A DNA stretch of 21,823 nt, taken from contig JAVZLK010000025.1 in the NCBI GenBank assembly GCA_038883795.1, forward strand, positions 1-21,823. The letters run 5' to 3'. How positions within the stretch are numbered: position 1 is the first letter of the stretch; every line of letters starts with the position of its first letter. Below, in pieces: positions 3,639 through 21,394 of this stretch. Source of the stretch: Candidatus Bathyarchaeia archaeon. GTDB taxonomy: Archaea; Thermoproteota; Bathyarchaeia; Bathyarchaeales; Bathycorpusculaceae. A program made the position numbers and the translations under genes. The notes below the pieces were generated by a model. The model was given only the letters and a program-made list of their open reading frames with translations, was not told the origin of the DNA and did not search any database.

Positions 3639-3800
3639 TTAAACATTGTTAACTGCTAATATGAATTGATGATTCACATTCTTCTCCGTTATTTCTGAAA
3701 CGCTTCCTTTAAGCATATATCGTCACGGAACTGATTGAGTATATGAATTGTGACTCTGCAACGCTTAACTATTTCAATTAAGGAAATTTAAAAGACCAAA

Positions 3801-5006
3801 ATGTTAGGTTGCACCAGAGCTCTTATAACTTTAACAGCGCTCTTGTTGATATGTGTATTTCTCACCAGAGGACTAGTCGCTTTCGCCGTGGATACGCTTA
3901 ATGATCCTTTAGTTATGTATCAGTGGGGTTGGCTGAGAATCCATTGCGATCAGGCATATGAAACTGGTTGGCATGGATCAAGTGTCATCGTTGCCGTGCT
4001 TGATACGGGAGTGGACACCGAGCACCCTGATCTTAAGGATAATTTGGTTGAAGGCTATAATTTTGTTGATAAAAATAACGATGTAACTGATTTGGATGGA
4101 CATGGGACCATGGTGGCTGGCATAATTGCTGCCGTAGCCAACAATAGTATGGGCATTGTGGGGGTGGCGCCACAAGTGAAGATAATGCCATTAAAAGTGT
4201 TGACAAGCGAAGGGGGCAACTGGGTTGACCTTGATTTGGCAATACTGTATGCGGCTAACCATGGCGCAAAAATAATCACAATGAGCCTTGGAGGAAAATA
4301 CTCGCTCCTTGGAGCCGCTACCGAAGCGGCTATAAAATACGTCTACCAGCAAGGCTGTGTATTAATTGCTGCAGCGGGAAACGACAACAGCAGCGATCCC
4401 TTTTATCCAGCAGCCTACGACGAAGTCATAGCAGTTTCAGCCATCGACCAAAACGATACAAAAGCCTCATTTAGCAATTACGGCAACTACATTGACCTAT
4501 GCGCTCCTGGAGTAAACATCATCTCAACTGCATTAAATGGAACATATGCTTATGGAAGCGGGACATCATTCGCTGCACCATTCGTCGCTGGCGTCGCCGC
4601 ATTGCTGCTCTCTAAAAATCCTGACCAGACGCCGCAAAATGTTGCAGAAACCCTATACAACCAAGCAGAAGACCTAGGCGAGAACAGCTGGGATCCATAT
4701 TACGGATGGGGATTAGTTGACGCCTATTCAGCAGTTTCGCAGCCGCCTATTCCGGAATTTCCAAACCTATTCTTTTTCATTCCTGTTTTAATCCTCATAA
4801 TTATTGTAACAGAGCAAGCCAAGCAAAAAATGCCCCTACGTTTATCAGACACACGGTTTACTTCCCTCTTTGACTCCCGCCTTCTGTGGCTACATTTAGG
4901 AAAAACATCAAAAATGCGCCTATTATGCCTTTTAATCTTCTTAGGTATAGGACGAGAACACACTTCGGACAAAAATTTCATGTGTGGACGCACCGCTCTT
5001 GTTTAA
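3801..5006 (+). CDS. S8 subtilisin-family serine protease with PEF-CTERM-like sorting signal
   Basis: Catalytic motifs VLDTGVD, HGTMVAG, AAAGND, GTSFAAP. N-terminal signal peptide. IPEFP followed by a hydrophobic helix near the C-terminus. Confidence 0.93.
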   Translation: MLGCTRALITLTALLLICVFLTRGLVAFAVDTLNDPLVMYQWGWLRIHCDQAYETGWHGSSVIVAVLDTGVDTEHPDLKDNLVEGYNFVDKNNDVTDLDGHGTMVAGIIAAVANNSMGIVGVAPQVKIMPLKVLTSEGGNWVDLDLAILYAANHGAKIITMSLGGKYSLLGAATEAAIKYVYQQGCVLIAAAGNDNSSDPFYPAAYDEVIAVSAIDQNDTKASFSNYGNYIDLCAPGVNIISTALNGTYAYGSGTSFAAPFVAGVAALLLSKNPDQTPQNVAETLYNQAEDLGENSWDPYYGWGLVDAYSAVSQPPIPEFPNLFFFIPVLILIIIVTEQAKQKMPLRLSDTRFTSLFDSRLLWLHLGKTSKMRLLCLLIFLGIGREHTSDKNFMCGRTALV

Positions 5007-5095
5007 CACCTATTATTATTGGATTTATCTCCAAAACTCTTTTGTGTGCAGAATAAAGGATATATGTGTCAAAATATTGTGGTTTATTGGTGTTT

Positions 5096-5341
5096 ATGAT
5101 GGTGGAGGCTTTTGTGCTTGTTCGTGTGGGTTCAAGTGAAGCGCTGAATTTCATGAAGACTGTTAAGGAGGAGGTTCGCAAAATTGAAGGTGTGAAAGAA
5201 ATTTTCGGAGTTTTCGGTCGCTATGACTTTGTTGTTAGGGTTGAAGCTAGGACGCTTGAAGAATTAGGCAATCTTGTTACGGACAAGATAAGGGGCATTA
5301 ACGGAGTATTAACTACGGAGACCCTCGTAATAGGCTTCTGA
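5096..5341 (+). CDS. Stand-alone Lrp/AsnC ligand-binding (RAM) domain protein
   Basis: MVEAFVLVRV...GVKEIFGVFGRYDFVVRVEA..LEELGNLVTDKIRGINGVLTTETLV is the typical stand-alone AsnC-family pattern. Start placed at ATG 5096/5099. Confidence 0.9.
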   Translation: MMVEAFVLVRVGSSEALNFMKTVKEEVRKIEGVKEIFGVFGRYDFVVRVEARTLEELGNLVTDKIRGINGVLTTETLVIGF

Positions 5342-5433
5342 AAATACAATTATTGACCCAAACAATCACCCATGATCTTCTAATATTCTGGGATCTGGAT
5401 TGCTGTTTTCCGTAAGCCACTTTTTCTTAGATA

Positions 5434-5924
5434 TCAGCTGATAGGTTGCTCGCCTGACATTCCTTGTTTGTTTAGAAGTCGTGTTCTTTGTGCCAGTTCT
5501 TTGTCTCCTAGGAATTCAAACCATTTTTCAAAGTCTCCTCTTAAAAAGTGAAATCTGACGGATTGCTTGTCGATTGTTTTTATTTTTTCGCAGAAATCCT
5601 GTAGGCTGATTGCAGAGGTGCCAGTATAGTTTCCTATTCCTGTGAAAAAGTGGAAGGCTTTTTCCAATGGCAGAGGCGAAACGATCTTTTGCGCTAGCTG
5701 GATAGTTAACAGCGGGAACCCTAGCAGTTCCCTGCCGGACTGTGTTATACTGTAATAACCTTTCCGTTTAGATTCAACATAACCCATCTTTTCCAATTCG
5801 TTGATATGCATCGCTATAACTTGATATTTTAAATTCAGCTTTTTGAAATGTCTGCAGCTTGAATGGGAGCAGCCTCCTTCCACAACTCCTCTAGAATATC
5901 CTTCTTAACCCTACTCAACGACAT
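5434..5924 (-). pseudogene. Winged-helix + DUF5752-like protein, frameshifted
   Basis: ATG 5924 reads MSLSRVKKDILEELWKEAAPIQAADISK then stops. Adding one A to the A5 run (5840-5844) joins it to KLNLKYQVIAMHINELEKMGYV (wHTH) and AFHF..G..A.SLQDF..FHFLRGDFEKW..LGD.ELA (DUF5752). The C-terminus also looks shifted near 5445. Confidence 0.75.
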
Positions 5925-6034
5925 GAAACAAGCCTCTAGAAGATTCTTCTAGTGTTCAAACTATTTTAGCCTTATTTTTCCGAGGGATAAATTAAAGATG
6001 GTTGACGCTATTCTGTTTGTGAGGGAGGCAAGGC

Positions 6035-6774
6035 ATGACAAAAGTTGTCGGGATAATTGGATGCGGTGCGATTGGCACGGTGATTGCAAAAGCAATAGAC
6101 AACAAAATCGTGAACTGCGATAGACTTGTTCTATATGATGTTGTAAATGAGAAGGCTGAAAGGCTTGGAAAGTCGCTGTCCCTTGAAACTGTTATTGTCA
6201 AAAGCGTTGACGAGATGATTGGGCTTAATCCTAGAGTCATAGTTAAAGCAGCCTCTCAACAAGCCGTTCGCGAATATGCAAATAAAATCCTAAACAGTAA
6301 TATTCACCTCATCGTCTTAAGCGTAGGCGCACTGTTAAATCTGAATTTGAAAAGCAGCAAAATTCACATACCCTCAGGCGCCATAGGAGGCTTAGATGCA
6401 ATTTCAGCTGCTCCTTGGCTGGAATAAGCGAAGCTATTTTAATTACGAGAAAGAATCCGCGTTCGCTTGGAAGAAGCGACAAAAGTGAAAAAATTGTTTA
6501 CGAAGGCTCTGCAGAAGAAGCGGTAAAACTTTATCCAGAGAACATTAATGTGGCCGCCACACTAGGCCTAGCAGTGCAGCCAGCAAAACTGAAAGTCAGA
6601 ATAATCTCTGACCCAAAAGTTACAAGAAATGTTCACGAAATTGAAATCATATGGAGGCATGGCGAAATGCGCTTCAAATTTGTAAATGAAACGCATCCAG
6701 AGAATCCAAAAACAAGTGCCCTCGCAGCATGGTCAGCCATAAACACGCTAAAGAATCTGCTGAAAGAAAACTAA
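6035..6774 (+). pseudogene. nadX: L-aspartate dehydrogenase split by a 1-bp frameshift
   Basis: GIIGCGAIG Rossmann motif, LSVGAL, PSGAIGGLDA, TRKNP, YPENINVAATL, NVHEI, NPKTSALAA. Frames 6035..6427 and 6415..6774 join if one T is restored at ~6412 (AAS-LAGI). Confidence 0.9.
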
Positions 6775-6826
6775 TTGCTTCAACTATTCTTAACGTTATT
6801 GCAAATCAATGCTGCTCTATAATGAA

Positions 6827-7000
6827 TCAACTGAGGCTTTTTGTCTTCTTCATGATAGCATAACATGATTTGCAAAGGTAATGTTCTACAACAGGCTTCA
6901 ACTCGCCTGTTTCACGGTCTAAGACCTCCTTATAAACAGGGTTAGCTTCACCCTCCGGAATTTCCTTCCCACACATAAAACAAACCCTTTTCTTCACCAT
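6827..7000 (-). CDS. Small zinc-finger protein (CFMC...CKSC), 57 aa
   Basis: MVKKRVCFMCGKEIPEGEANPVYKEVLDRETGELKPVVEHYLCKSCYAIMKKTKSLS. Start set at ATG 7000 by comparison with the paralog at 1336. Confidence 0.8.
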   Translation of the reverse strand: MVKKRVCFMCGKEIPEGEANPVYKEVLDRETGELKPVVEHYLCKSCYAIMKKTKSLS

Positions 7001-7129
7001 TCCACCACATTCCTCAGCATAAACCCATTTAAAATTTAAAAAGAAACACCAACTAATAAAACCTACCAATCCTTCTCTATATTCCGTTAAAAGAAATTTA
7101 AAGGGCGTATCTGCTATGTCGAACTTTAT

Positions 7130-7157
7130 TGTTCTCTTAACGATGACTAAAAGAATA
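7130..7157 (+). repeat. dif/lox-like site, spacer CGATGA
   Basis: TGTTCTCTTAA-CGATGA-CTAAAAGAATA. Confidence 0.85.
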
Positions 7158-7194
7158 TTTATTTTTTGACTGAACTTATATTAAGAGGGACAAG

Positions 7195-7494
7195 ATGGAT
7201 TTATTGTTGCTACTTTGCATACTTCTGTTTATCGCCTTCTCGTTCCTTTATGTCGCTTATCATCGTCTTAAAAAATATGCCAAAAATTGCGAGGAACAAA
7301 TTAGGAGGAGAGACGAGGTCATACGGGAAAATGATAGAAAGTTAAAAATTATGGAAAGAAAGTTAAAAGAAAAGGAGAAGCTGGTTAAACAATATCAACC
7401 TTATTATTTGAAGTATCTTGAAGAGGAAGAGCGACGGGAAGAGGAGGAATATAGAAGGCGCATACAGCGTGTTAGGGATGCCGAGGTGTTGTAA
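7195..7494 (+). CDS. Hypothetical membrane-anchored coiled-coil protein
   Basis: N-terminal TM helix followed by an E/K/R-rich helical tail. GAGGG SD upstream. Confidence 0.75.
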   Translation: MDLLLLLCILLFIAFSFLYVAYHRLKKYAKNCEEQIRRRDEVIRENDRKLKIMERKLKEKEKLVKQYQPYYLKYLEEEERREEEEYRRRIQRVRDAEVL

Positions 7495-7522
7495 TCTTTG
7501 GTGGATTTGTGTTTGTCCGTAA

Positions 7523-7888
7523 TTGATATGGTTTAAAGGTGAAAGGTCGGAATGGGCAGAGGAAGCTATTGTGGCTTGGGAAGAAAAGAGAAGAAAAGCT
7601 TTGGTCAATGCGACTCTGTTTTATGCTGTTTCTGGTGTTCAAAATGGAGCCATAAAAGCGGCGGACCATGTGAATGGTTGCGCTTTTTTGTCTGAAGGGT
7701 GGGAATGGAAAATTTGCGATTTGCGCTGTAAAAAATCCGGAGTTACCATGAAGAAGAGCCCTTTAGAGTGTGCCCATTTGAACACAATTCTAATTCCCAT
7801 TTTTAATGTGAGGGGGGAGCCTCGCAGAGTTGTTAAAAAATGCGTTGAATGTGGCGAAATATTGGAAACTGAGAGTATTGGTCGCTGA
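7523..7888 (+). CDS. Hypothetical protein, possible Zn-binding C-terminus (CAH...CVEC)
   Basis: 121-aa ORF co-directional with the previous gene; Cys/His pairs. Confidence 0.6.
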   Translation: MIWFKGERSEWAEEAIVAWEEKRRKALVNATLFYAVSGVQNGAIKAADHVNGCAFLSEGWEWKICDLRCKKSGVTMKKSPLECAHLNTILIPIFNVRGEPRRVVKKCVECGEILETESIGR

Positions 7889-7920
7889 AAGTAAAACTTG
7901 TAGAATTTAATCTTAATAAA

Positions 7921-8451
7921 TTACTCTTTCTTATTAAGCACAACTAAGCCTTTCTTTTTAGCTATGAAGATTAAACGGGATTCTATATTCTTAAGCTCCT
8001 TTTTTGATGAACTTTGTTGAAGTGAAAAAGATATAATAACTGGCTCCTTCATTTTGATCACGAAGTTTGGTCCAGATCGTTGATGTTGAAAAGGCTCAAA
8101 CCATGCATTAACCCATAAGCTATGATCTTGATCATCATATCGTTTTGTGCCTAATATTTCACATGCCAAGCCTCTTAGGTGATAAGCATGAGACCTTTTC
8201 CATCTACCACCCACCTGTTTTGAAATTCCAAAATAAAAGTAATTTTCAGATATGCGTCTGGCAACGTAAATGTGAGGCGAATTTTTGACTAGATCATACG
8301 CTTCTTTAGCCCTTTCAGAAAGAAAGAATCCTTTCTCATCAAAAATAGCGAGAAGAGGCTGCTCTGGTAAAGTCTTGAAAAGAGGAACAGGATTTGCCAA
8401 AGCTAACTTCCATAATTGAACATCATTAATCTTGAACAATTTCCCTTGCAT
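7921..8451 (-). CDS. Putative GIY-YIG superfamily nuclease
   Basis: HIYVARR..YFYFGIS...RWKRSH...IESRLI...LNK matches the GIY-YIG motif order (IY, YxG, R, H, E, N). The ORF could start at 8475. Confidence 0.6.
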   Translation of the reverse strand: MQGKLFKINDVQLWKLALANPVPLFKTLPEQPLLAIFDEKGFFLSERAKEAYDLVKNSPHIYVARRISENYFYFGISKQVGGRWKRSHAYHLRGLACEILGTKRYDDQDHSLWVNAWFEPFQHQRSGPNFVIKMKEPVIISFSLQQSSSKKELKNIESRLIFIAKKKGLVVLNKKE

Positions 8452-8527
8452 ACAGGTCGCATAGAACAAAAACATGGTGATTATTATAACGTTTATTATT
8501 ATGAATCTCTACACGGCTTAGTAGAGA

Positions 8528-8554
8528 TGTTCTGTTAGAAACATTAATGGAATA
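8528..8554 (+). repeat. dif/lox-like site, GA(A)ACA-class spacer, 1 bp short
   Basis: TGTTCTGTTAG-AAACA-TTAATGGAATA. Confidence 0.75.
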
Positions 8555-8627
8555 GCACATTTATATGGCGGAACATTTTTACAAAAAAGTTTTATGAGTA
8601 AACTTAGCTTTAATTTTGGGATAAATT

Positions 8628-9743
8628 ATGCCGTTATACGTTGCAAATGATGAGACAATAAATATGATAAGATATGCTCTTGGTGTCTTTAAGTATAGAG
8701 ATTATCTGAGCGGCTTTAGTGAATTGTCTGCTTATCTAGCGTCTCTAAGTTTTGAAAGAACGATTCTTCAAACTGGGGTCAAGTTTGGATTAGACAGAGA
8801 ATTTGGAGCGTTTAGGTATGAAATTACAGATGTAATCAATTTTCTTAGAAAAAAGCAGTTAATAGACGAAAGTGAGTATAAGAAACTTGTATTTTGTAGG
8901 GATTTTCGGAATAATGTAATGCATAAAGGTGCAACCACAACGGAGATACAAGAAACCAAAAAAATATTAAAGACATTATGTGAGATGATTGGACTTGCTT
9001 TAGATGAGGAGTTAGAAAAAAGAGAATTTGAAGACATTTTATCATTCGGTAAAAGACCAACTGTTAAGCGTGAGTTTTCCATTATTCAAGATTCGGACTT
9101 TGATAATTTTATTATACTTTATGAAAAAGCATTAGCGTTGCATTTTAATTTAGAGAAACCACTCTCTTTGCTTGGCTTGAAGCCGGAAGAAGTTTCGGAG
9201 TTTGTTCCAAATAGCGGTGGAATTTGGCTTCCGTGGGTGTTAGGAGAATCCGGAGGAAGATCTCACATAAGAAGAGCCACTTTAGGCATAACATTCACTC
9301 CAAACAGCATAAGAGTCGGAATTGATTTTGGAAGCAAAGCTTACAAGGCAAAACAACAGTATTATTCTCTTCTACTCGAAAACAAAATAGATGAAGTGCT
9401 TTCCAAGTTAACTGAGTCAAATTATCTATTTTACGACACTTATTGGTATTATCACATCCGAAATCTAAGAGCTATTCAAAAATACTTTGATTCATCACAA
9501 GAAATCAAGCATGAGCTTCATATAACATTAGAAGAAGTCAACGAAACTCTTAACCGCCTTAAGCCAATGGCTGGACATAAATTTCTAATTGGGAAAATTT
9601 TCCAAAGAAACACCGCAGAGTTTACCAAAGTAATTGAAAGCTTGCCCAACACAATCAGCAACATTTTTAATGATTTACGACCCTTACTAAAAAAGATAGA
9701 GAATTTCAAAATGTCAACCTATCAGCTACGATACTCTCCATAA
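8628..9743 (+). CDS. Putative HEPN-domain protein with an uncharacterised C-terminal domain
   Basis: Helical N-terminus with SFERTI and RDFRNNVMH (RxxxxH HEPN RNase motif). Confidence 0.6.
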   Translation: MPLYVANDETINMIRYALGVFKYRDYLSGFSELSAYLASLSFERTILQTGVKFGLDREFGAFRYEITDVINFLRKKQLIDESEYKKLVFCRDFRNNVMHKGATTTEIQETKKILKTLCEMIGLALDEELEKREFEDILSFGKRPTVKREFSIIQDSDFDNFIILYEKALALHFNLEKPLSLLGLKPEEVSEFVPNSGGIWLPWVLGESGGRSHIRRATLGITFTPNSIRVGIDFGSKAYKAKQQYYSLLLENKIDEVLSKLTESNYLFYDTYWYYHIRNLRAIQKYFDSSQEIKHELHITLEEVNETLNRLKPMAGHKFLIGKIFQRNTAEFTKVIESLPNTISNIFNDLRPLLKKIENFKMSTYQLRYSP

Positions 9744-9785
9744 CCTCTTTCCTATTCGCCAAAGGCCTTCTCGTATTATTGATGA

Positions 9786-9813
9786 TTTTCCGATAACGGT
9801 GATTAATAGAACA
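9786..9813 (+). repeat. dif/lox-like site, spacer CGGTGA, between two convergent genes
   Basis: TTTTCCGATAA-CGGTGA-TTAATAGAACA; ends 1 bp from the stop codon of the next gene. Confidence 0.8.
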
Positions 9814-9814
9814 G

Positions 9815-10513
9815 CTATGAGCTGCGAACTCTTTCCGTTAACTTCCTAATATACTCCGTAAGTTTTGTCCAACTCTTAAGGAGACCCTCTGCTTCTTCTA
9901 AGTCTAAGTATAAGTTAATGTCTGCTTTCCTAGCTTGACTTGTCAATTCCTCAAGTTTCTTTGAATCTTTGGATTTGAAGGCTTTCATCATATCGGTTGC
10001 CAAATTGAGTTTATGTTTAAGTTTTTCTGCTCTTCTTGCAAACTCCTCATTAATGCTTGTAAGAAACTTCTCTTCCGTCAATAGTGCTTCCCTAGATAAA
10101 AGATGTTGTAACGTTTCAATGTTCTCCTCTCTTGCTAAGTCTCTCCTATACATTTTACATAAGGGCACATCGACGGAACATACATATATCCTAAACTCAT
10201 CACCGTTAGTTATCATTCCAAGCAAGACTTGCGATTCTTCCATATATCGCTTCAGTTGTGGTAAATGCCTCTCTAAGTTTTCACCTAATTTCTTAGTTTC
10301 TACAATTATGCATGTTTCTCTGGAGGGGCCTCTGATAAAAATGTCCCTTCCAGAATGTTCAAAACTAAGGTCAGTAAGACCATGACCAAGGCATTGTAAA
10401 ATGGGTAGAACCACTTTAATTTTAACATCCTCTTCCAGAAATCCTACATCTTTAGGAGTGTAATTGGCAATTTCTTGAAATACCTTCTCTTTATTACCGT
10501 TTGAATGTGACAT
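9815..10513 (-). CDS. Type I restriction enzyme HsdR N-terminal-like (HSDR_N) nuclease-domain protein, stand-alone
   Basis: EEDVKIKVVLPILQCLGH...DIFI...IIVETKK...QLKRY...GMITNGDEFRIY. No helicase domain follows, only a helical tail. Confidence 0.8.
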   Translation of the reverse strand: MSHSNGNKEKVFQEIANYTPKDVGFLEEDVKIKVVLPILQCLGHGLTDLSFEHSGRDIFIRGPSRETCIIVETKKLGENLERHLPQLKRYMEESQVLLGMITNGDEFRIYVCSVDVPLCKMYRRDLAREENIETLQHLLSREALLTEEKFLTSINEEFARRAEKLKHKLNLATDMMKAFKSKDSKKLEELTSQARKADINLYLDLEEAEGLLKSWTKLTEYIRKLTERVRSS

Positions 10514-10716
10514 AATTTTACTTTCCTAATGAAAATAATCTTGACAGTTAAAATAATTTTTGGGTCTTATGCACTTATAAACGGAGAAAATCAATTACTT
10601 CGATTAAGAGAGTATTGATTTTGAGTCTCGGCTGTCTCGTAAGGCATTTTCTCCATTTTGCGCAATACTTTATTGCAATAATGTTCGACATTTTTTGGCT
10701 CGACTGCAGATGTTCT

Positions 10717-10744
10717 GATTCTGTTAAGAGACACTAATAGTATG
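10717..10744 (+). repeat. dif/lox-like site, spacer GAGACA
   Basis: GATTCTGTTAA-GAGACA-CTAATAGTATG. Confidence 0.85.
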
Positions 10745-10853
10745 TTCTCATCTGAAAAGGGCTTTCGCATCGCTTTGAAATCGCTTTGAATAATAAAAAA
10801 TGGGCACTTATATAGGATACATGAAACAAGTATAATGTGGTGGAGATGATGGA

Positions 10854-11363
10854 ATGTCGCGGGGAAGAATTCCCACAGTCGCTGGAAAGAAAGCTGAGAT
10901 GCGGTTTGTTTCGGCTTTGATAGAAAGAGATTTTATTCCTTTTATTCCGGTGGTCGATTTAGGAATTGATGTAATTGCGGAGAAATTCTCAGAAGGTCAA
11001 CCACCCAAATATTTTGCTTTTCAAGTGAAAACTTCGTCGTTTAGTAGTAAAAATGCTTGCTGGTATTGGTATATAAATAAATACAGCTTTAGATGCGCCA
11101 AAAACGTTTTCTACGTGCTTGTGTTTGAAGATGCTGAAAACTTCCCTGAAAATGTTAAAGCGGATCCTCAGTTCAACACATGTATAATTCCATCTAAGGA
11201 AATCTGCACATCTGGTCATTGGACTACTTATAAAGGAGGGCAGAGTTTTGACGTGACGATTACAGTCAACATGTTGAAACACATCCGAAGGTTTTCTAAG
11301 AAAGCAACAAATAGTGGAATAGCATTGCGTCACTTTAATAGGTGGTCTAATCTGAATCATTAG
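10854..11363 (+). CDS. PD-(D/E)XK endonuclease-fold protein
   Basis: GKKAEMRF..ALIER...PVVDLGIDVIA...FQVKTS (E...D...QxK). Confidence 0.8.
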   Translation: MSRGRIPTVAGKKAEMRFVSALIERDFIPFIPVVDLGIDVIAEKFSEGQPPKYFAFQVKTSSFSSKNACWYWYINKYSFRCAKNVFYVLVFEDAENFPENVKADPQFNTCIIPSKEICTSGHWTTYKGGQSFDVTITVNMLKHIRRFSKKATNSGIALRHFNRWSNLNH

Positions 11364-11528
11364 ATTGTTTTTCATCTTCAATCAATTAGGAATTGTTAAA
11401 GAAACCACTGTCCAATACCTAATCTTGGAAATGTTCCAGTTGATAGGGCATCCCATACAAAAATTACCTTTCTTCAAGTAAAGAGCTTGTTTCGAAACGC
11501 TTATCTCCTAATATCCCCCCATTCAACG

Positions 11529-11556
11529 ATTCTTGTTAGCGGTGACTAATAGGAGT
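11529..11556 (+). repeat. dif/lox-like site, spacer CGGTGA
   Basis: ATTCTTGTTAG-CGGTGA-CTAATAGGAGT. Confidence 0.8.
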
Positions 11557-11639
11557 GATATTTTATTTCGTGTAGTCGGATGCGTTTGGATGGTTTGAAG
11601 GAGAAATTTATTTTGATGTTTTTATGATTAGTATAAGGG

Positions 11640-12125
11640 GTGGGGCGGATGGAGGTTTCGGGTGAGGTTTCAGCTTTGGCTAATTATCAACGAAAGATGG
11701 AGGAATTTTATAATGATCTGTTGGATGTTTGGTTTAGGGGATGTTTTGGACTTTACACGGACGTTTTTTGTGAAGAGGAACCGTATGTTCTGCATCCTGA
11801 CATAGAATTGGTGTTTTTTGAGGATGTTTTAAATGTGGATCCGAATGATCCTGAGCAGCCAATGTTGAGGCTTCTCGGAAGTCTTGTTAAGAGGGGGTGG
11901 CAAATTAAGATGAATTTTATGGCTCGAAACTGCCTGTTAGGCAATGTGGTTGTGAAGATTGGTGATAAGTGGTTTGCTTTTGGGCAGTGCAGAAGGGATG
12001 ATTATGGAGAACCATATGTGGCGGAGATATGGCCTTTAAAATATGTTTTGCCGAGGATTGAAAAAATGGAGGTTAAATTAAAATATGCTAAAGCTATAAG
12101 AGAGGAGGCCCTAATTCCGCCTTAA
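11640..12125 (+). CDS. Hypothetical protein
   Basis: 161-aa ORF with a G-rich SD region (ATG at 11649 is an alternative start); no motif recognised. Confidence 0.7.
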   Translation: MGRMEVSGEVSALANYQRKMEEFYNDLLDVWFRGCFGLYTDVFCEEEPYVLHPDIELVFFEDVLNVDPNDPEQPMLRLLGSLVKRGWQIKMNFMARNCLLGNVVVKIGDKWFAFGQCRRDDYGEPYVAEIWPLKYVLPRIEKMEVKLKYAKAIREEALIPP

Positions 12126-12417
12126 ACTCTTGACATTCACTTTCAGTATGTTTTAGCCTTTCATGCATTGATTGCTTTTTGGTTTGAACTTTAACGGTTA
12201 TGAGTTTCCTCTTGTTTTTGAAATCTTCGTCATATTCTAGGAGGTTGATTTTTAATATCACCCAATAAGGCTCTTTTCTCCAATGAACATTTAAATATGA
12301 ACAGGTCATGGGTTCGCCAATTTTGACTAAACTATCGATTTCCTCTTTAGTAACGCCAGCAAAAGACAAAGACTCTAACAACTTCTGCTTAACAGTTTCC
12401 AAAGCTTCAACCATCAA
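12094..12417 (-). CDS. Hypothetical protein
   Basis: 107-aa ORF with GGGTG SD-like upstream sequence; its 3' end overlaps the convergent ORF by 32 bp. Confidence 0.6.
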   Translation of the reverse strand: MMVEALETVKQKLLESLSFAGVTKEEIDSLVKIGEPMTCSYLNVHWRKEPYWVILKINLLEYDEDFKNKRKLITVKVQTKKQSMHERLKHTESECQEFKAELGPPLL

Positions 12418-12758
12418 ACCACACCCAAAGCCACAAATGGGGAGCCATTAGCACTTAAGAATTTTCCAAAAATTCAAATAAACAACGAAGATAAAAAAGC
12501 CCCAAAAAACCAAAAATTAAATAAAAAAGGAAGCATGTCCAAAACTTCGATGAAAATCGGTAATTTTTGAGAGAAAACGAACAGAAGCGAACAGAATAAA
12601 TATTTATAAGCGGTTTGGTTAAATGCATATAACCATGCCAAAGCTAATTTGCGCTTTTGGAGAATACCTAACTGTTTAATTCGTCTGCTGAAAGTATTTG
12701 CAGAAGTTTTCCAGAAATTATAACATCTTTCGTTGAAGCAGAATTACTAGATAGGAAT

Positions 12759-13320
12759 ATGCTCCAAGACTATAGGAAGATGAACCTATCACTCCATAGT
12801 CTGTTGGTTTTCGCTCTCGTGGTGGCTGGCTTCAGCTCCAATTTACTATCAGCTATTGAGCCTCGCATACCCTTGTCTACGCCCCTAAATCCATCTAATT
12901 ACGGCGTGGTTTCAAGGAGAGGAATACCAAGGTTGCACCATCAAATAAAATTCGACGTGTGTCTTTACCGAAACAAATCTCATGACACTTTTGCTGAAGT
13001 TAATACCATTGATACGGCTTTGGGATACGAGAGTTCCAAGGAAAGAGTTTCTAACAAAGAGAGACATTTATAAGCACTTCGGTAAACAAGCAGAACAAAA
13101 GTATGGATTTATTATCTGCATTACCTTGCCACGTAACGTTATATATCGACCGCCATGGCCTGACCAAAGATATTTAAATGCAATTTACTACGCAACGCTT
13201 GAGCCAAAATGGAGAGAACTGAGAACCGAATTGAATGAATACTTGGATGCACATTTGATAGTGATAGAAGAAAACGGCATACACATTAATGGTGTCCATT
13301 TTCCTATCCATTTTCCTTGA
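12759..13320 (+). pseudogene. Probable frameshifted/decayed gene, possibly nuclease-like
   Basis: Two overlapping ORFs in different frames (12759..13073, 12982..13320). IKFDVCLY...FAEV in the first looks as if it should continue into RKEFLTKRDIY...FIICITLP in the second. Confidence 0.4.
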
Positions 13321-13527
13321 CAAATGAATTTGAATATCCTAACAGCTTCTTTTTCTTTTGAAAGTTAAGATACTACATTATTATTTTCAGGGAAAAGTAA
13401 ACTTTTGTCTGCGTTGGGAATTCACAGCCCTTGATCAAGTTCGCAAGGTTTTGGGCTTGCCTTCCTATCACTCTGGCCTAAGCTTCCTTTTCTCTCAAAG
13501 AGAATTGCTTTAACTTGTTTTTGGCGA

Positions 13528-14067
13528 CTATCTTTTTAACTGAATGTCCATCATCTTTTCAACTAAGTGCAACAGCCACAGTCCATCTGGTAGCGTTGTT
13601 GTTCCTTTTGTCTTAGGCTTAAATGGAGGTTTTTCTTTCCAATCGTCAATTGCCGGAATGACATCCTCTTTTATGAAAGAATCTAAATGTTTTATGTTAA
13701 TGTTGTTCTTTTTAGTGGCTTCAATAGTTTCCTTGCTTACATACGTTGCAATATAGAGATTTTCGTAAGACGCTTTTCCATCAAAACCAAGTTTTTTGCG
13801 ACAATATTCCTCAATAGCTTTTTGATTAACGCTACTGAACTTCTTCTGAATATGTTGAATGTTTTTTTCGGTGCCTCCTGGTAGACTGCCAACTTCTACA
13901 TGCATTATTTCCAGAACCCTGTCTCTAATCCTAATCCCTAAAACATCGGCTTCAGGTCTTCCTCCAGGCTCTGCGGTTCTTATTGGAACAGAGATCTCAA
14001 CGAAATAGCCCTTTAACTGTAACCATTCCGCTATTAATTCTTCACTCCATGTTCTGGTATAAGGCAT
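13528..14067 (-). CDS. Restriction-endonuclease-like PD-(D/E)XK-fold protein
   Basis: WSEELIAEWLQLKGYFV...EADVLGI...HVEVG. GGTGA SD upstream of ATG 14067. Confidence 0.7.
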   Translation of the reverse strand: MPYTRTWSEELIAEWLQLKGYFVEISVPIRTAEPGGRPEADVLGIRIRDRVLEIMHVEVGSLPGGTEKNIQHIQKKFSSVNQKAIEEYCRKKLGFDGKASYENLYIATYVSKETIEATKKNNINIKHLDSFIKEDVIPAIDDWKEKPPFKPKTKGTTTLPDGLWLLHLVEKMMDIQLKR

Positions 14068-14366
14068 TTTTAACTTCACCGTGAAGAAAAGATGAACTTT
14101 AAACATATTAACTTATTCAACTCTTTATAATGTTGAATGCGCGTTATCAGAAGACTTTGGAATGGTTAAATAGATTAAAAGAGAACAATTAAGTGAAGTG
14201 CAACTTCAAAAGCACAATAACGATTCATGACCAATGGGAAACTTTAACGAGGAAATATAAAAGTAATTCAATTTTTATCTTGAAACCTGTGAACTTTGTG
14301 TGAAGGAAATAGAATTTTACGATATTAAAGAAAAAGGGGGTAACGATTTTAATTTCAATGTTGAAC

Positions 14367-14525
14367 TTATACTGCCTTTATTCTCTTGACTATTGGCGAT
14401 CGCACCTTGCGTGCAACTTTATAGAGACAGTTTGGGCACTTCCAGTTTAGTATCTCCCACTTCTCCGCCGAACACCTAAGACCGCACCTTACACACTCAT
14501 AAATAATTTCGCCTGAGTTGGACAT
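14367..14525 (-). CDS. rpoP: DNA-directed RNA polymerase subunit P (Rpo12)-like protein, 52 aa
   Basis: Below the ORF-track cutoff. MSNSGEIIYECVRCGLRCSAEKWEILNWKCPNCLYKVARKVRSPIVKRIKAV has the Rpo12 pattern Y.C.RCG...CP.C.Y(K/R)...K.R...vK.iKA. Strong SD GAGGTG. Confidence 0.85.
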   Translation of the reverse strand: MSNSGEIIYECVRCGLRCSAEKWEILNWKCPNCLYKVARKVRSPIVKRIKAV

Positions 14526-14694
14526 GCGCATCACCTCAAAAGAAAGAGCATTTGGTTATACACGCGCACACATCAGAACAAAACAATGAAAATTCGTCAC
14601 ATTCCTCTTATTTAGCTTTTTCTGACAAATATTCTAAAGGTTACTGCTGGCATCAAAGAACACCTCCACTCACACGGTGCTCCGTTTTCTCAAA

Positions 14695-14722
14695 CATTCT
14701 GTTAGCGATGATTAATGGAACT
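14695..14722 (+). repeat. dif/lox-like site, spacer CGATGA
   Basis: CATTCTGTTAG-CGATGA-TTAATGGAACT. Confidence 0.88.
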
Positions 14723-14761
14723 TTAAAATTTTAAATATAATTCTAATGAAAAGACTGTATA

Positions 14762-15202
14762 GTGCACGATATGAGCAATCGTCAAATATCTGGCATGTCT
14801 GGTGTTTATTATGTGGCTGCAGAATTGTCCAAGCTGGGTTACATAGCCCTCGTAACGACCCGCAACACGAAGGCTGCTGACATTATTGCTATGAATGATG
14901 AAACAGGTGTGAGCGTGGCTATAGAAGTAAAAACATGTGGCATCTCTACTTCGGATAGCTTCTGGCTCCTCAGTGCGAGAGACCGTCAAAAGAAGCCACA
15001 TAATTTTATCTACGTGTTCGTCAAACTTAATAGAGATAAAGCTCACGATTTTTATATAGTGCCAGCTCAGTTTGTTGCGAAGAACGTTGAGAAACAAAAG
15101 GCTAAGACAGGAAGCGTATGGTATTACATATCAAAAGATCGAATAGCTTCATTTAAGCAAAAATGGGATTTAATACAGCATGTTACAACCAAAAAATCTT
15201 GA
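14762..15202 (+). CDS. PD-(D/E)XK endonuclease-fold protein
   Basis: GMSGVYYVAAELSKLGY...RNTKAADIIA...IEVKT. ATG 14771 is the likely start. Confidence 0.8.
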   Translation: MHDMSNRQISGMSGVYYVAAELSKLGYIALVTTRNTKAADIIAMNDETGVSVAIEVKTCGISTSDSFWLLSARDRQKKPHNFIYVFVKLNRDKAHDFYIVPAQFVAKNVEKQKAKTGSVWYYISKDRIASFKQKWDLIQHVTTKKS

Positions 15203-15223
15203 AGATTTTCGTAACGACTATTT

Positions 15224-15718
15224 TTATAACTCAAGTAGCTGTTTCCACTTAAGGGCTTCATCTGTTCCAAAGGTGGATAAAACATCCTCTATACGAACAA
15301 TTTCGCGTAAGGCATCCTTTCCAAACTCTTCTAGGTAAAGGCTAACTATTTCACCTGGACCAATATTCTTATGTTTGGCTAATTCTAAGAATGCTCCGAA
15401 TATCAATTTTTCTCTCTCTAGGGCATATTCTCTTAGCTCATCGTGGTCGGTGTGGCGACGAATTTCCTCTATTCTTTGTAAGCAACTTAGAACTCCCTCA
15501 AGGTCGTCCAGACCTATTTTATCTGATCTCAAATCGTAGTATCTGATAATGGACATTGCCTCTACAGCTGATGTTAGTAAAACCATCGATTCTTTAATTT
15601 CTCTTTCAGACTTATGTTCTTGCTCCTCTAAACTCTTAACAATGGTATTTATTCGGGAGCCTATTTGCTCAATTGCGTCTTCTATTCTCTTAATCCGCTG
15701 TTCAATATCGTCTCCCAA
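15224..15718 (-). CDS. Hypothetical helical/coiled-coil protein
   Basis: 164-aa ORF, TTG start with GGTGA SD, N-terminal heptad pattern. Confidence 0.7.
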   Translation of the reverse strand: MGDDIEQRIKRIEDAIEQIGSRINTIVKSLEEQEHKSEREIKESMVLLTSAVEAMSIIRYYDLRSDKIGLDDLEGVLSCLQRIEEIRRHTDHDELREYALEREKLIFGAFLELAKHKNIGPGEIVSLYLEEFGKDALREIVRIEDVLSTFGTDEALKWKQLLEL

Positions 15719-15775
15719 AATTTCACCGCACTTTTTGATTAAAAATTTCTAGCAAGCCCTTTAAAATTTTTGGGT

Positions 15776-15803
15776 AATGCTGTTAAGATCTTCGAAAGGT
15801 ATC
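15776..15803 (+). repeat. Degenerate dif/lox-like site (candidate)
   Basis: AATGCTGTTAA-GATCTT-CGAAAGGTATC; good left arm, weak right arm, intergenic. Confidence 0.45.
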
Positions 15804-15873
15804 CATAAAATTCGCTTGCAGTTTACTTAATGAAAGACATATAATATTTTTGTGTTAAATACACTATAGAGGT

Positions 15874-16773
15874 GTGCTCTTGTCCCAAAGGAAAATGCTT
15901 TACGCTGAGGCCGAGGGAAGCTATACAGATATCCTTTACCTGCACATATTAAGCGAGAAAGTTTTTCCTGAAAATGATGGTGTTGTTAAAGAAGTTCAGG
16001 TTGGTGGGAAGAAAAGTTTTGTTAGAGTTGACTTGGTTTCACGCTATGGACAGCCGGAAAGATATTTTGGAATTGAGGTAAAATACTGGCCTGGAGCTTT
16101 CGAGCAAGGTTTTAAGCAAGCTGATAGAATAAAAGGTAATGTTCATGCGGTTTTCTTAGGCATTCCAGCTGAAGATGTGCCAGTCGCCCAGGAAGTTAGG
16201 GGGAGGAGGTTTAGAGATATTGGTGTTTTACCAGTTTCACGAATTTTTCCAACAAAAGTTGCTGCAGTTAAAGCTAGCCTAAACGCTAATCCTGATCAAA
16301 ATGCACTCAATCAACTCTCCAAACATTTTGATGATCTACTTTATGGGAAAGAATATTCGGAAACTTATTATAGCAAGATTTGGGATGTCATAAAAAGCAA
16401 ATTGACAAAAAGGAGAAAATTTGCATTTTTTATTCTTTTCCTTTCACAAACTGAAGTCTACTCTAAACAGAAATTTTTGTCGCAGCAAAAAGTCAGAGAA
16501 TTTGGAATTAAATTATCCGAAGCGCTTAACCTGCAAATCAAGCATCCAGATTGGGCTTGCTGGGAATTATATCATTTAGGTATTGTAGAATACGTTCGAA
16601 TAGGTGTCCGAAACAACTTTTTTAGGCTTAATCCCTGGCTAATCGTGACCGTTAAGGATACGATTAAAGATTATTTCAAGAATGAAATTATTCAATCTCA
16701 AAATGTCGTTCAACAAATTCACAGAGAGATAATAGATAAAAGATCTAACGTTATCCATGATTACATCGGTTGA
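15874..16773 (+). CDS. PD-(D/E)XK nuclease-fold N-terminus with possible C-terminal winged helix
   Basis: KEVQV...RVDLVSR...GIEVK...GFKQA. C-terminal ACWELYHLGIVEY...FFRLN is wHTH-like. GAGGTG SD. Confidence 0.7.
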   Translation: MLLSQRKMLYAEAEGSYTDILYLHILSEKVFPENDGVVKEVQVGGKKSFVRVDLVSRYGQPERYFGIEVKYWPGAFEQGFKQADRIKGNVHAVFLGIPAEDVPVAQEVRGRRFRDIGVLPVSRIFPTKVAAVKASLNANPDQNALNQLSKHFDDLLYGKEYSETYYSKIWDVIKSKLTKRRKFAFFILFLSQTEVYSKQKFLSQQKVREFGIKLSEALNLQIKHPDWACWELYHLGIVEYVRIGVRNNFFRLNPWLIVTVKDTIKDYFKNEIIQSQNVVQQIHREIIDKRSNVIHDYIG

Positions 16774-16782
16774 TTTTAAACA

Positions 16783-16810
16783 TATTCTGTTAGGAGACAC
16801 TAACAGAATA
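16783..16810 (+). repeat. dif/lox-like site, perfect inverted arms, spacer GAGACA, between convergent genes
   Basis: TATTCTGTTAG-GAGACA-CTAACAGAATA; the arms are perfectly complementary and extend to 12 bp. Confidence 0.92.
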
Positions 16811-18883: not shown

Positions 18884-18911
18884 TGTTCGGTTAATAACGT
18901 TTAATGGTTGT
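18884..18911 (+). repeat. dif/lox-like site at the backbone/array junction, overlapping the RHH gene stop
   Basis: TGTTCGGTTAA-TAACGT-TTAATGGTTGT. Confidence 0.65.
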
Positions 18912-19400
18912 TTGTTCTTGTTGTTTTGGTGGTGGGTATTTTTGTTTTCTTGTGTTTGTTAGTTTTTCTTGTTTTTCGCATAAGCGTTTAGCTGCTTCTA
19001 AGAAGTCTATGAAGAGGTGGAGTTTTTCTAAGGGTCCGTCGTATGCTGTTAGGAGTTTGGCGACAACCTCATCCATGTTTGCGAGCTTTTCAGTGTCTAA
19101 TCCTTGTTCTACTGCCAGGTTTAACAGTTCGTCTTCTGGATCTTCCTTCCTCATTTGGGCGTGGAGCCTTTCAAACTCGCGGAATAGGCGGCGATATTCC
19201 CTCTTCAAAAACTCGTAGTCTTCAGCCCATTCACCTGCTTCGCCTGCCTCACCAACCCATCTTTTAAGGAATTCTGTTACCACAGCGCTTAGAGAAGTGC
19301 CCCTTGACACACACAGCCTTTTAGCAGCCTCAGCCAAGTCAAGGGGAACCCAAAGATGCAAAGACACGCCCACTTTTCCGGCAAGCCTCTGCCTTGGCAT
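18891..19400 (-). CDS. Ribbon-helix-helix (CopG/Arc-like) DNA-binding protein with a coiled-coil C-terminus
   Basis: VSLHLWVPLDLAEAAKRLCVSRGTSLSAVVTEFLKRWV is a beta-helix-helix RHH pattern. Divergent from the recombinase. Confidence 0.8.
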   Translation of the reverse strand: MPRQRLAGKVGVSLHLWVPLDLAEAAKRLCVSRGTSLSAVVTEFLKRWVGEAGEAGEWAEDYEFLKREYRRLFREFERLHAQMRKEDPEDELLNLAVEQGLDTEKLANMDEVVAKLLTAYDGPLEKLHLFIDFLEAAKRLCEKQEKLTNTRKQKYPPPKQQEQTTIKRY

Positions 19401-19574: not shown

Positions 19575-19602
19575 ATTGCTGTTAACACCTCTTAACAGAA
19601 AA
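19575..19602 (+). repeat. dif/lox-like site about 100 bp upstream of the recombinase gene
   Basis: ATTGCTGTTAA-CACCTC-TTAACAGAAAA. Additional half sites TCAACAGAAAA (19619-19629) and GCTTCCATTAA (19678-19688). Confidence 0.8.
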
Positions 19603-19701: not shown

Positions 19702-20616
19702 ATGACATCGCCAGAAGTCGAGGAATTCCTCTTAGCCCTTAAGCCTGGAACACGCCACGTTTACGCTAGGGGCTTAGCCAAATTCCAAGAATTCTTATCT
19801 GGGCAGGGGCTTGATGCGGCTGGTTTCCTTAGGCTTGTCGAAGAAGACTTGCAAAAGCCTAGGCTTGAGAAAACACGGGTAGCCCGCAAAACCCTAAACG
19901 CCTTCATAGGCTATCTGCAGGCTGAAGGCTTTGCCCCCAAATCCATAAACACATATGTTGGAGCCGTCCAGTCCCTCGCAAAATACTACGACATTTCGTT
20001 GGGCATGCGGTATGTTAGCCGACCGCCAGCTACAGCTGTCCACAAAAAGCATCCATGGACCATTGAAGAGATAGCCAAATTCACAGCGTTGATGGAGAAC
20101 ACCCAATACCGTTGTATTGCAGCCTGCATAGTCCAAAGCGGACTAAGCATATCAGACCTTTTAAGCCTAAAATACGCAGACATCCAAAACGAGTTCGAGA
20201 AGGGTATATCGCCCCTCTGCCTGGACCATTCAAGAAAGAAGACCAACATACCCTTCCTAACATTTCTAGGCGGATGGGCTTTATCGCTTCTAAAACAGCA
20301 CTTAGAAGGCAGACGTCTAGAAGAAGATACACCAATATTTACGGTTACGGCAAGGGCTGTTGACAGTTACTTCGCAAGAATTGGCGCAAAATTCGGCGGA
20401 AAATTCAAAGGGCGAAATCCCTACAGCCCCCATTCGTTGCGGGCTGCTTTCCGCACAATCCTAAGCGATCATAAGGTTGACCCGCTTTACATAGAGTTTT
20501 GGATGGGACACAAAGTTCCAGAGCAACAAATTGTTTATGTCAGCAAAAGCCGAGAAGGCTGGAGAGAAGCGTATCGCACTTTGGCGGAGCCTTGGCTTAC
20601 TCCGATGAAGGCTTAA
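19702..20616 (+). CDS. Tyrosine recombinase/integrase (XerC/D-like architecture)
   Basis: N-terminal SAM-like domain (T...Y...L..F; KSINTY..AV.S...Y). RKKT(178-181), HSLR(244-247), MGH(270), Y279. Box I reads SGLS instead of the canonical GxR. Confidence 0.92.
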   Translation: MTSPEVEEFLLALKPGTRHVYARGLAKFQEFLSGQGLDAAGFLRLVEEDLQKPRLEKTRVARKTLNAFIGYLQAEGFAPKSINTYVGAVQSLAKYYDISLGMRYVSRPPATAVHKKHPWTIEEIAKFTALMENTQYRCIAACIVQSGLSISDLLSLKYADIQNEFEKGISPLCLDHSRKKTNIPFLTFLGGWALSLLKQHLEGRRLEEDTPIFTVTARAVDSYFARIGAKFGGKFKGRNPYSPHSLRAAFRTILSDHKVDPLYIEFWMGHKVPEQQIVYVSKSREGWREAYRTLAEPWLTPMKA

Positions 20617-21310
20617 CATTTTTAAGCTTGAATTTTTGAGTGGCTTCTTCGAACCATTCCACAAAATGCAAATCCTCATCCTTGGCGCTTAAAGCTTGAT
20701 TTTGTGAATCCATGTTTAGCTGTAGTTTGTTGAGGGCATGTTTTACTATGGCGTCTGCCCATCCTGTCGGAACTTTTAGGCGAGCAGCTAAAGCAAACGC
20801 AACAATTTTCCTTGCCAAATTGCCCGTGTAAGCGGCGATTTCGTGGTTTCCGCGGAACCCAAGCTTGTCCAGAAGCTGCGATATTCTGGAGAGGATTCTT
20901 CTAAGCTGCGGCGGATCCTCCATTTGGGCCATAATCTTTATTCTACGCGCTCTAAGCCCCAAATCCTCCCCGCCATTAGGCGCCTTAGCCAAAACCCGCA
21001 TCAAACCCTTTCCGCCATTATTTTCCAAAACCGGGTCGCCCAACCCCTTCAAAAAGCAGAGGCTGCTGCCAGGCTGCCAATGACCCTCAAAATGGCCGTT
21101 CAATCCTTCGCATTCGCCTTCTGGGAAAGGAACAGCCCATGAAACGTTTTCATCACTCCAAACCATACCGCATTTCATACATACGACCTCACCATCCGTG
21201 GCGACAATTGAGCCGCCACATTCCAAACACATGCCCAAAGCCAGACATAGCTCTTTAAGCTGCTCAAAAGAAAGCCTGCTACGCAGAAAATCAGCGCTAA
21301 TCAGCAGCAT
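20597..21310 (-). CDS. Divergent, truncated TFB/TFIIB-like protein (Zn ribbon plus probably one cyclin repeat)
   Basis: CLECGGSIVATDGEVVCMKCGMV is a TFIIB Zn ribbon. FLKGLG and LRRILSRISQLLDKLG...IAAYTGNLARK resemble the TFB B-reader and first cyclin helices. SD GGAGTGG before ATG 21310. Confidence 0.6.
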   Translation of the reverse strand: MLLISADFLRSRLSFEQLKELCLALGMCLECGGSIVATDGEVVCMKCGMVWSDENVSWAVPFPEGECEGLNGHFEGHWQPGSSLCFLKGLGDPVLENNGGKGLMRVLAKAPNGGEDLGLRARRIKIMAQMEDPPQLRRILSRISQLLDKLGFRGNHEIAAYTGNLARKIVAFALAARLKVPTGWADAIVKHALNKLQLNMDSQNQALSAKDEDLHFVEWFEEATQKFKLKNVKPSSE

Positions 21311-21394
21311 AAACCACTCCAAAGGAAAAATACCTTCAAAACGAGTCCGAAAACAGAAAAAGAGGGAATTTGCGGGAGAAATCTCCACGCTGTG

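Follow-up and report, generated by a model that had tools for sequence, protein, structure and literature searches.

The window analysed here is the entire contig G000:C25 (21.8 kb, 39.6% G+C) from an 87%-complete archaeal metagenome-assembled genome (MAG). It is best explained as the terminal part of a chromosomal cassette array in a hot-spring Bathyarchaeia archaeon. The integrase-bearing relatives are Candidatus Bathyarchaeia, mostly from hot springs, and the runs containing the window sequence are hot-spring metagenomes. In the labels used below, G000 is the window's own genome, other G numbers are genomes of relatives, C is a contig, L is an array locus and X1–X4 are metagenome runs. The array consists of 24-bp sites of the tyrosine-recombinase type, TTCTGTTAR-N6-YTAACAGAA, in which two 9-bp inverted repeats (TTCTGTTAR and YTAACAGAA) flank an asymmetric 6-bp core. 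The same arms are found in all classes of site, and the classes, named by capital letters, are distinguished by their cores. The window was scanned with the arms TTCTGTTA and TAAnnGAA, and the sites are listed with 8-nt arms, together with the integrase gene at the array end:

1468..1490, + strand: decayed A-type site with 7-nt spacer, TTCTGTTA GTGAGAC TAAAAGAA
7132..7155, + strand: class A site, core CGATGA at 7141, TTCTCTTA ACGATGAC TAAAAGAA
8530..8552, + strand: site with 7-nt spacer, GAAACAT at 8538, TTCTGTTA GAAACAT TAATGGAA
9788..9811, + strand: class A variant, core CGGTGA at 9797, 3 arm mismatches, TTCCGATA ACGGTGAT TAATAGAA
10719..10742, + strand: class B site, core GAGACA at 10728, TTCTGTTA AGAGACAC TAATAGTA
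11531..11554, + strand: class A variant, core CGGTGA at 11540, 4 arm mismatches, TCTTGTTA GCGGTGAC TAATAGGA
14697..14720, + strand: class A site, core CGATGA at 14706, TTCTGTTA GCGATGAT TAATGGAA
16785..16808, + strand: class B site, perfect arms, core GAGACA at 16794, TTCTGTTA GGAGACAC TAACAGAA
18886..18909, + strand: degenerate class E site, 5 arm mismatches, TTCGGTTA ATAACGTT TAATGGTT
19577..19600, + strand: class I site, 125 nt upstream of the integrase start, TGCTGTTA ACACCTCT TAACAGAA
19702..20616, + strand: tyrosine recombinase, 304 aa (Pfam PF00589, E 3e-10)

All sites are on the plus strand in one orientation. Their order is A* (1468), A, x, A', B, A', A, B, E*, I, and the array then ends at the integrase gene. 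With up to three mismatches, the arm pattern has 6 matches in the window versus 0.17 expected, and sites with known cores number 8 versus 0.54 in shuffles. Seven sites with their spacers had been named in an earlier sequence-only reading of this DNA, and the arm-pattern scan locates all of them where that reading placed them. The spacer length of 6 nt is right for six of the seven, but the site at 8538 has 7 nt (GAAACAT) between its arms. This site is probably decayed and its class is uncertain (a doubtful B), because its spacer is one base off from the 6-nt cores. The span given for the array, 7130–16810, does enclose those seven sites, but the sites at 1468, 18886 and 19577 also belong to the array, which extends from 1468 to 19600. 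The last four sites form a canonical array end, as on own contig C58 (B-E-I-integrase), and the position of the 18886 E site between B and I agrees with the general order described below. The upstream part of the window is a repeated A-B unit with several decayed sites (3–4 arm mismatches or 7-nt spacers). No B site between 11555 and 14696 was found by eye (12420–12660) or by core scan. The core CGGTGA occurs in this window alone, in 2 of 19 A-class sites.

The sequence-only reading took this series for two alternating spacer classes that protect single modules. The cores CGATGA and GAGACA are, as it stated, not reverse complements, and they differ at 5 of 6 positions. The alternation is not established as a pattern: ABABAAB gives 5 of 6 unlike neighbours, which is reached by 7 of the 35 arrangements of four A and three B sites. 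There are at least eight classes in a fixed order rather than two, and in the window the A-B unit is repeated in tandem, which is atypical and not an example of an alternation rule. Among the loci first collected, A precedes B 13 times and B precedes A once, in this window; in the out-of-sample set the counts are 35 and 1. The comparative sequence evidence does support the underlying idea, namely heterospecific sites that permit replacement of modules, and in a form that is wider and more striking than alternation. Unlike neighbours, discrete cores, diverse cargo and breaks at sites all speak for it.

Core classes and their order across Bathyarchaeia

The following classes are distinguished by their cores:

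Class H: CTGCAA
Class D: CAGCGA
Class A: CGATGA
Class B: GAGACA
Class E: TAACGT
Class G: CGTGAA
Class I: CACCTC
Class F: TAAATG or TGTTTG

An additional core, J (CGTCGA), is seen twice. The 83 sites with at most two arm mismatches have 20 cores between them, and this is not a random collection, as four cores account for 60 of the sites (GAGACA 19, CGATGA 16, CAGCGA 15 and TAACGT 10). Position 9 is a purine in 91 of 95 classified sites and position 16 is a pyrimidine in 95 of 95; therefore the arms are 9 bp and the core is 6 nt. Between classes, cores differ at 3 or more of the 6 positions; the D/H pair, with 2 differences, is the exception. Within classes, cores deviate from the consensus at 6 of 546 positions (1.1%) and arms at 144 of 1456 (9.9%), a contrast that is partly circular because the classes were set by spacer patterns. 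For the D, A, B and E sites, conservation does not reach beyond the 24 bp, the flanks being unrelated.

The own genome has 20 arm-pattern matches per strand versus 0 with a reversed control. Sites are present on about 25 of its contigs, often a few hundred bases from the contig end, and site arrays would account for assemblies of these genomes breaking at such loci. Among relatives, sites are found in 15 of 61 genomes. In the family as a whole they are found in 65 of 301 genomes and 25 of 70 genera, with at most one match per genome for the reversed-pattern control. Viral carriers were considered and rejected; an exact-arm scan of IMG/VR gives 7 single sites with unrelated spacers, which are taken as chance matches.

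Once arrays are oriented by the core strand, the classes follow one another as H-D-A-B-E-(G/I/F), with the sites co-oriented. In a first set, comprising the own genome and 14 loci of relatives, 53 of 60 neighbour pairs run forward, 3 run backward and 4 are equal. The highest forward count in 100000 within-array shuffles is 41, and without the window the counts are 50 forward, 2 backward and 2 equal. All arrays of this set are co-oriented, save for one H site of ambiguous strand with a near-palindromic core. Since the rank and the classes were derived from the first set itself, an out-of-sample test was made with a metagenome scan for the B-site pattern, which gave more than 120 stretches, and 80 loci were used. 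At least two classified sites are present in 38 of the 80 loci, and 37 of these 38 are co-oriented. The order count, which leaves out 33 unclassified sites, comprises 57 pairs, of which 52 are forward, 3 backward and 2 equal; 0 of 20000 shuffles reach this. In the three backward pairs, two B-D and one B-A, a further unit begins (L109 B-D-A-B, L126 A-A-B-D-A and L106 B-A-B). Further forward arrays among the matches listed are A-B in G157:C2 and C3, D-A in G157:C1 and H-A in G149:C32. Neighbouring sites carry different cores in 56 of 60 pairs of the first set and 55 of 57 of the out-of-sample set, which agrees with the incompatibility of neighbours proposed before. The same-class duplicates are AA, BB and DD (4/60 and 2/57, respectively). 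At least four arrays lie in the near-complete genome G012 (2 contigs, 98% complete), and two of them are full series with unlike core-gene flanks, a thermosome gene in one case and an FrhB/CBS gene in the other, so the order is not merely that of one orthologous locus.

Cargo, homology breaks and other samples

The modules between sites are 0.3–8 kb long, and their genes, in either orientation, are mostly accessory or unknown. The same pair of site classes almost always encloses unrelated cargo. Clustered at 70% identity or more across half or more of the shorter member, 48 A-B modules make up 44 clusters, 23 D-A modules 21 and 10 B-E modules 10; the lengths range from 225 to 7702 nt. In other arrays, NosD/beta-helix surface proteins are found in A-B, B-E, D-B and B-B slots and on both strands, and further cargo includes a GNAT acetyltransferase, a pyridine-nucleotide oxidoreductase, helix-turn-helix (HTH) proteins and methyltransferases. 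The module contents of the window are unique within the genome, except for the integrase/TFIIB-like end and a protease paralogue. Its cargo is mostly without family, with one HSDR_N-like nuclease domain. A 356-aa cargo protein at 16851–17921 (minus strand) matches the candidate defence family PDC-S11 (PADLOC, E 1.8e-16). Some slots are empty, with sites of consecutive classes 44–147 nt apart and no gene between them, as at own C32:8545-8612 and at E-G in G012 (L008 9268/9415 and L018 8429/8552).

Homology between arrays often breaks at the sites. Blastn blocks of at least 150 nt and at least 80% identity were collected for 34 array loci and the window, and 24 of 105 internal block ends lie within a site or at most 10 nt from one, versus 1.34 for random positions. 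The decayed site at 1468 is orthologous to a perfect A site (GCGATGAC) in a genome of the same genus (G003:C17); window 1–1496 is 92% identical to the flank of that site and the homology stops 6 nt beyond it. Two G012 arrays share 774 nt (92.8%) ending 3 nt beyond both A sites, and their A-B modules differ. Own contig C74 is a 5.5-kb D-A-B contig, compared here with G012:C2 (loci L025, L008 and L019). Its D site and upstream flank correspond to G012:C2 at 97.4%, ending at the D inner edge, while its B site and downstream flank correspond to another G012:C2 array at 94.9%. The two counterparts are about 156 kb apart and G012 is of another genus, suggesting a recent transfer or a large rearrangement ending at the D and B sites. 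C6 and C80 have common sequence only upstream of an E site, and C45 and C65 only downstream of an A site. The alternative junctions observed lie at same-class sites.

Contigs of four runs were compared with window positions 1200–21199. X1, possibly the source sample, has 95% of the sampled words, and X2–X4, from another study, have 20–27%. X2–X4 cover 1491–7131, 10743–11530, 14721–16784 and 16809–19576 at 90–99% identity. Their depth is about 0–1 at 8537–10537 and 1–4 at 7203–8536, so that 7203–10537 is nearly or wholly absent, with the reservation that uncovered parts are not proof of absence because the data are contigs. The X2–X4 contigs cease to match the window at 7132, 7143, 7155, 14696 and, on the upstream side, at 16785, and start to match at 16794–16808. 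Modules are present in some samples and absent in others, with breaks at site edges. A complete A site stands directly before a complete B site where 7157 is joined to 10719 (X3 at 36.7, X4 at 28.2). Further A|B joints connect 7156 to 16785 (X3, X4) and 14721 to 16785 (X1 at 58.9), and one joint has B before E* (16808 to 18886, X1). A x B excision cannot have produced these A|B empty slots, because it would leave one hybrid site. The earlier proposal that two-module units move between same-class sites finds no counterpart here; the indels observed have unlike ends, A on one side and B on the other, rather than two A sites.

The integrase, a proposed exchange mechanism and its alternatives

The window integrase scores 50.7 bits against the NCBIfam XerA model (NF040815, cutoff 220) and matches PDB entry 4a8e with E 2e-9. 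Its NCBIfam matches at E<=0.01 are XerA, XerD, XerC, XerS and GmtY, each below cutoff, and the integron-integrase model TIGR02249 is not among them. The RKKT, HxxR, WMGH and Tyr motifs are conserved in the aligned integrase family. At the position of the first catalytic arginine (GLRVSE in XerA), a serine is found (QSGLS-SD) in 15 of 15 aligned members. The family includes the window gene and homologues in L026 and L040–L054. The protein falls outside the XerA equivalog on two counts, as its score is under the cutoff and the R-K-H-R-H/W-Y set lacks the first Arg. By sequence, it is a distant XerA relative and a candidate enzyme for the sites. An I-type site lies 125–147 nt upstream of the gene in 8 of 9 loci of close homologues, and the upstream sequence of the ninth is just 48 nt long. 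Among the loci of 55–69% homologues, 10 of 11 have a site, beginning 15–24 nt after the gene, in which a D/H-type core and a good right arm are combined with a degenerate left arm. Thus, one integrase type is placed at the array head and the other at the tail.

Several observations concern these genes and a second recombinase family. In X1, the summed contig depth over the integrase gene (19876–20542) is about 400 versus about 20 for neighbouring modules, and the gene is therefore in many copies or strains there. An integrase copy on own contig C8 (1048–1548) is cut to its first 167 aa and joined without a recognisable site to a 180-aa gene; no junction site is seen at this truncated copy. The 180-aa gene has a counterpart in a G012 A-B slot (80% aa identity). 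A site within the integrase gene was considered and dropped; the 30-aa remnant in G007:C52 follows an ordinary site in the I/F position and the coding sequence has no site-like stretch. A tRNA beside the 55–69% homologues was likewise rejected, since a tRNA-like 3' fragment was seen by eye but ARAGORN finds no adjacent tRNA at 15 loci. The second family, IntZ, combines an IS1-like zinc ribbon with an integrase domain in 430–486 aa and is multicopy, with 11 matches at E<=1e-40 in the own genome (e.g. C45:9184-10644). In G012, IntZ (C1:21889 and C1:935887) and a P4-family primase are found together some 5 kb past two G sites, an arrangement that resembles the core of an integrated element. IntZ was rejected as the enzyme specific for these sites, as it is found in 45 of 61 relatives irrespective of sites (13/15 with and 32/46 without).

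In Cre, Flp, lambda Int and XerCD (at pdif), strand exchange requires matching spacers. We infer that recombination takes place at the array sites under the same rule, with one recombinase, perhaps this integrase, binding all arms and strand exchange needing equal cores. Given common arms, discrete cores and the spacer-matching rule, unlike neighbours would not react together. Stability in cis, without self-deletion, would follow for an array with a single site of each class, and crossover would occur between same-class sites on separate molecules or arrays, giving a cointegrate. A second crossover at another core class would resolve the cointegrate and swap the intervening DNA, a slot-addressed exchange like recombinase-mediated cassette exchange (RMCE) or dif-module replacement. 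A common order would keep arrays interchangeable, which would itself preserve the order and the exact cores. The repeated A-B pattern of the window would arise from a single same-core crossover with a circle bearing A and B, before resolution, and a tandem with decayed sites would be the expected remnant of such an unresolved cointegrate or of an insertion. That neighbouring sites cannot recombine together and that modules are swapped via pairs of same-core crossovers is the reading we favour, with a probability of roughly 0.55. A wider proposal, for which the odds seem somewhat under even, is that the arrays follow a communal standard of slot-addressed exchange in Bathyarchaeia, with at least six mutually incompatible cores, common arms and a recombinase without the first catalytic arginine. 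Incoming DNA with two cores would then replace the matching stretch without need of homology or risk of deletion in cis, and empty slots with abutting sites would act as landing pads, so that the whole would amount to a natural multi-site RMCE platform.

Capture as in integrons would have single-site circles insert at a resident site, with the core not limiting and the order an accident or a result of shared descent. The half-degenerate, attI-like site adjoining the integrase in 10 of 11 loci would suit this. So would the many array-bearing genomes without integrase, which resemble clusters of attC sites lacking integrases (CALINs; in the part of PMC9668308 available), and the same-class pairs around single modules (G002:C13 D-A-A-B, C32 B-B, L126 A-A-B). 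We nevertheless consider it unlikely. The order is kept in 105 of 117 pairs of two sets, including several differently flanked arrays in one near-complete genome. Moreover, 44 unrelated cargoes have A on the left and B on the right, which counts against single-site insertion, where the classes on both sides would be equal. The sites are 24 bp without a conserved flank rather than folded attC, and the integron-integrase model is absent from the matches of the integrase described above. A graveyard of remnants beside a hotspot, where each core is the att site of a different mobile-element family and the array grew by tandem accretion, seems similarly improbable. Both G sites examined in G012 are followed by a ribbon-helix-helix-like gene, a P4-family primase and IntZ, the I site precedes the window-type integrase, the D/H site follows the 55–69% homologues, and IntZ is multicopy, all of which fit accretion. 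The arms, however, are identical in all classes, so one binding specificity serves all of them, the small modules carry no replication or integration genes, the same order across 25 genera is not predicted, and IntZ is not specific to site-bearing genomes. Vertically inherited palindromes that serve as regulatory or structural boundaries, with turnover by gene gain and loss or homologous recombination, appear still more doubtful. In favour of this, a dimeric DNA-binding protein could equally use the 9-6-9 layout, array ends carry a conserved small protein and a TFIIB-like protein, and most array-bearing genomes have no integrase. However, homology-block ends and contig breaks match site edges within a few nucleotides, the cores form discrete kinds and are more conserved than the arms, opposite to what is expected of operator spacers, and there is tight linkage between the sites and a tyrosine recombinase gene.

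The spacer-matched exchange that we favour has its own difficulties. Support for recombination at the sites is comparative throughout. Only the out-of-sample set is independent of the class definition, and it is seeded on B sites; 33 of the 123 sites with at most three arm mismatches are unclassified and so outside the order counts. Same-class duplicates are equally compatible with simple single-site insertion. The A|B joints are a lead, as their short sides of 22–25 nt are under the 30-nt caution limit, and the many short array contigs of the own 87%-complete MAG may mix strains. The serine at the first-Arg position makes the activity of the integrase uncertain. At E<=1e-40 the integrase is absent from 12 of the 15 site-bearing genomes among 61 relatives, and the co-occurrence is weak (both 3, sites only 12, integrase only 3, neither 43). 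G012 is without a window-type integrase (best E 8.8e-6) despite its four or more arrays.

Among known systems, RMCE with Cre or Flp is man-made and uses two site variants. Like recombines only with like, and a cassette flanked by two unlike sites can be swapped by double crossover but not excised. Heterospecific lox/FRT sites are alike in having common arms and spacer variants, whereas here at least eight natural variants stand in series. XerA acts at a near-palindromic site with a short spacer. XerA is also the closest sequence relative of the window integrase, but here there are dozens of arrayed sites per genome versus one dif site, and Ser replaces the first catalytic Arg. Shufflons and invertible systems need inverted sites, whereas the window sites are on one strand and other arrays are co-oriented. 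Integrons are alike in having a cassette array beside a tyrosine recombinase, a half-degenerate site near its gene that may correspond to attI, and many arrays without integrase. attC, one per cassette, is an imperfect palindrome of some 55–140 nt with a folded single-stranded form, and IntI integrases have an additional domain; the array differs from integrons in its 24-bp double-strand-type cores, in two different site kinds per cassette in fixed order and in mixed gene orientation. Archaeal integrons have been described (Ghaly et al. 2022, PMC9668308), and the word Bathyarchae is absent from the main text of that paper.

The principle of spacer-matched module exchange is already known from the dif modules of Acinetobacter. 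In the part of PMC13141974 available, these too are accessory-gene modules bounded by short recombinase sites with 6-bp spacers and several spacer kinds per replicon, most module sets are without a dedicated recombinase gene, and a single module is replaced via a cointegrate at one spacer-matched pair with resolution at a second. The pdif arms are unlike each other (XerC/XerD, 11-6-11) and the sites have to alternate in orientation (C and D modules), whereas the present sites are near-palindromic (9-6-9) and co-oriented. The pdif modules are bacterial and plasmid-borne, and the present arrays are archaeal and chromosomal. A fixed core order across many genera, as found here, is not reported for pdif in the same part of PMC13141974. 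Dif modules are recombined by the chromosome-dimer resolvase of the host. No canonical Xer protein scoring above the XerA family cutoff was found in the five genomes searched (G000, G012, G029, G033 and G007; best XerA score 173.7 bits versus 220). Aloposons were considered as a similar system and rejected, since they are giant-gene transposons at tRNA sites (PMC8813620, as far as its text was available). In the literature accessible to us, whose supplementary tables might list such loci, we found no report on these sites or on any natural series of heterospecific sites in a set order. The word 'cassette' occurs 0 times in the available text of a review of archaeal tyrosine recombinases. The ordered series appears to be new, the exchange principle is not, and the array is neither a dif module nor an integron.

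If spacer-matched exchange is true, the arrays would be a third natural layout for site-specific exchange of accessory genes beside integrons and dif modules, and the first case with array position encoded by ordered core variants. Genes would flow by this route in an archaeal class that is abundant and uncultured. The spacer-homology rule is testable on this natural set of at least eight orthogonal cores with one arm pair, and a functional enzyme would make the system a recombination toolkit of thermophilic origin with multiple orthogonal sites.

Other features of the window

Besides the sites and the integrase, the window contains the following features:

1178..1475, + strand: ~300-nt non-coding element directly upstream of the first site; second copy at 6845-7139
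1491..7131, mixed strands: 5.6-kb module with Pfam-annotated genes, namely the next five
1911-3638, - strand: surface protein
3801-5006, + strand: S8 protease
5066-5341, + strand: AsnC-type domain
5434-5883, - strand: winged HTH (wHTH) protein
6035-6774, + strand: split aspartate dehydrogenase
18891..19400, - strand: 169-aa protein, weak DUF6364 match below cutoff
20597..21388, - strand: TFIIB-type zinc-ribbon protein
21451..21582, - strand: C-terminal fragment of IntZ (E 2.7e-6), running past the contig end

The two copies of the ~300-nt element are 76–79% identical and each precedes an A-type site. Relatives of the element are found upstream of the A site in G003:C17 and upstream of an H site in G029:C17, and it could be an array leader. 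Rfam gives no match for the 1100–1500 repeat region at E<=1, and 0 matches across the window at gathering scores. The 169-aa protein is kept beside terminal array sites; its homologues adjoin I, F and G sites in C8, C58, C79 and G012. The TFIIB-type protein has homologues on C20, C54, C79 and C58 and adjoins I and F sites. The aspartate dehydrogenase is made of two overlapping open reading frames, the NAD-binding part at 6035–6427 and Asp_DH_C at 6415–6774, and the split appears to be a frameshift or a sequencing error.

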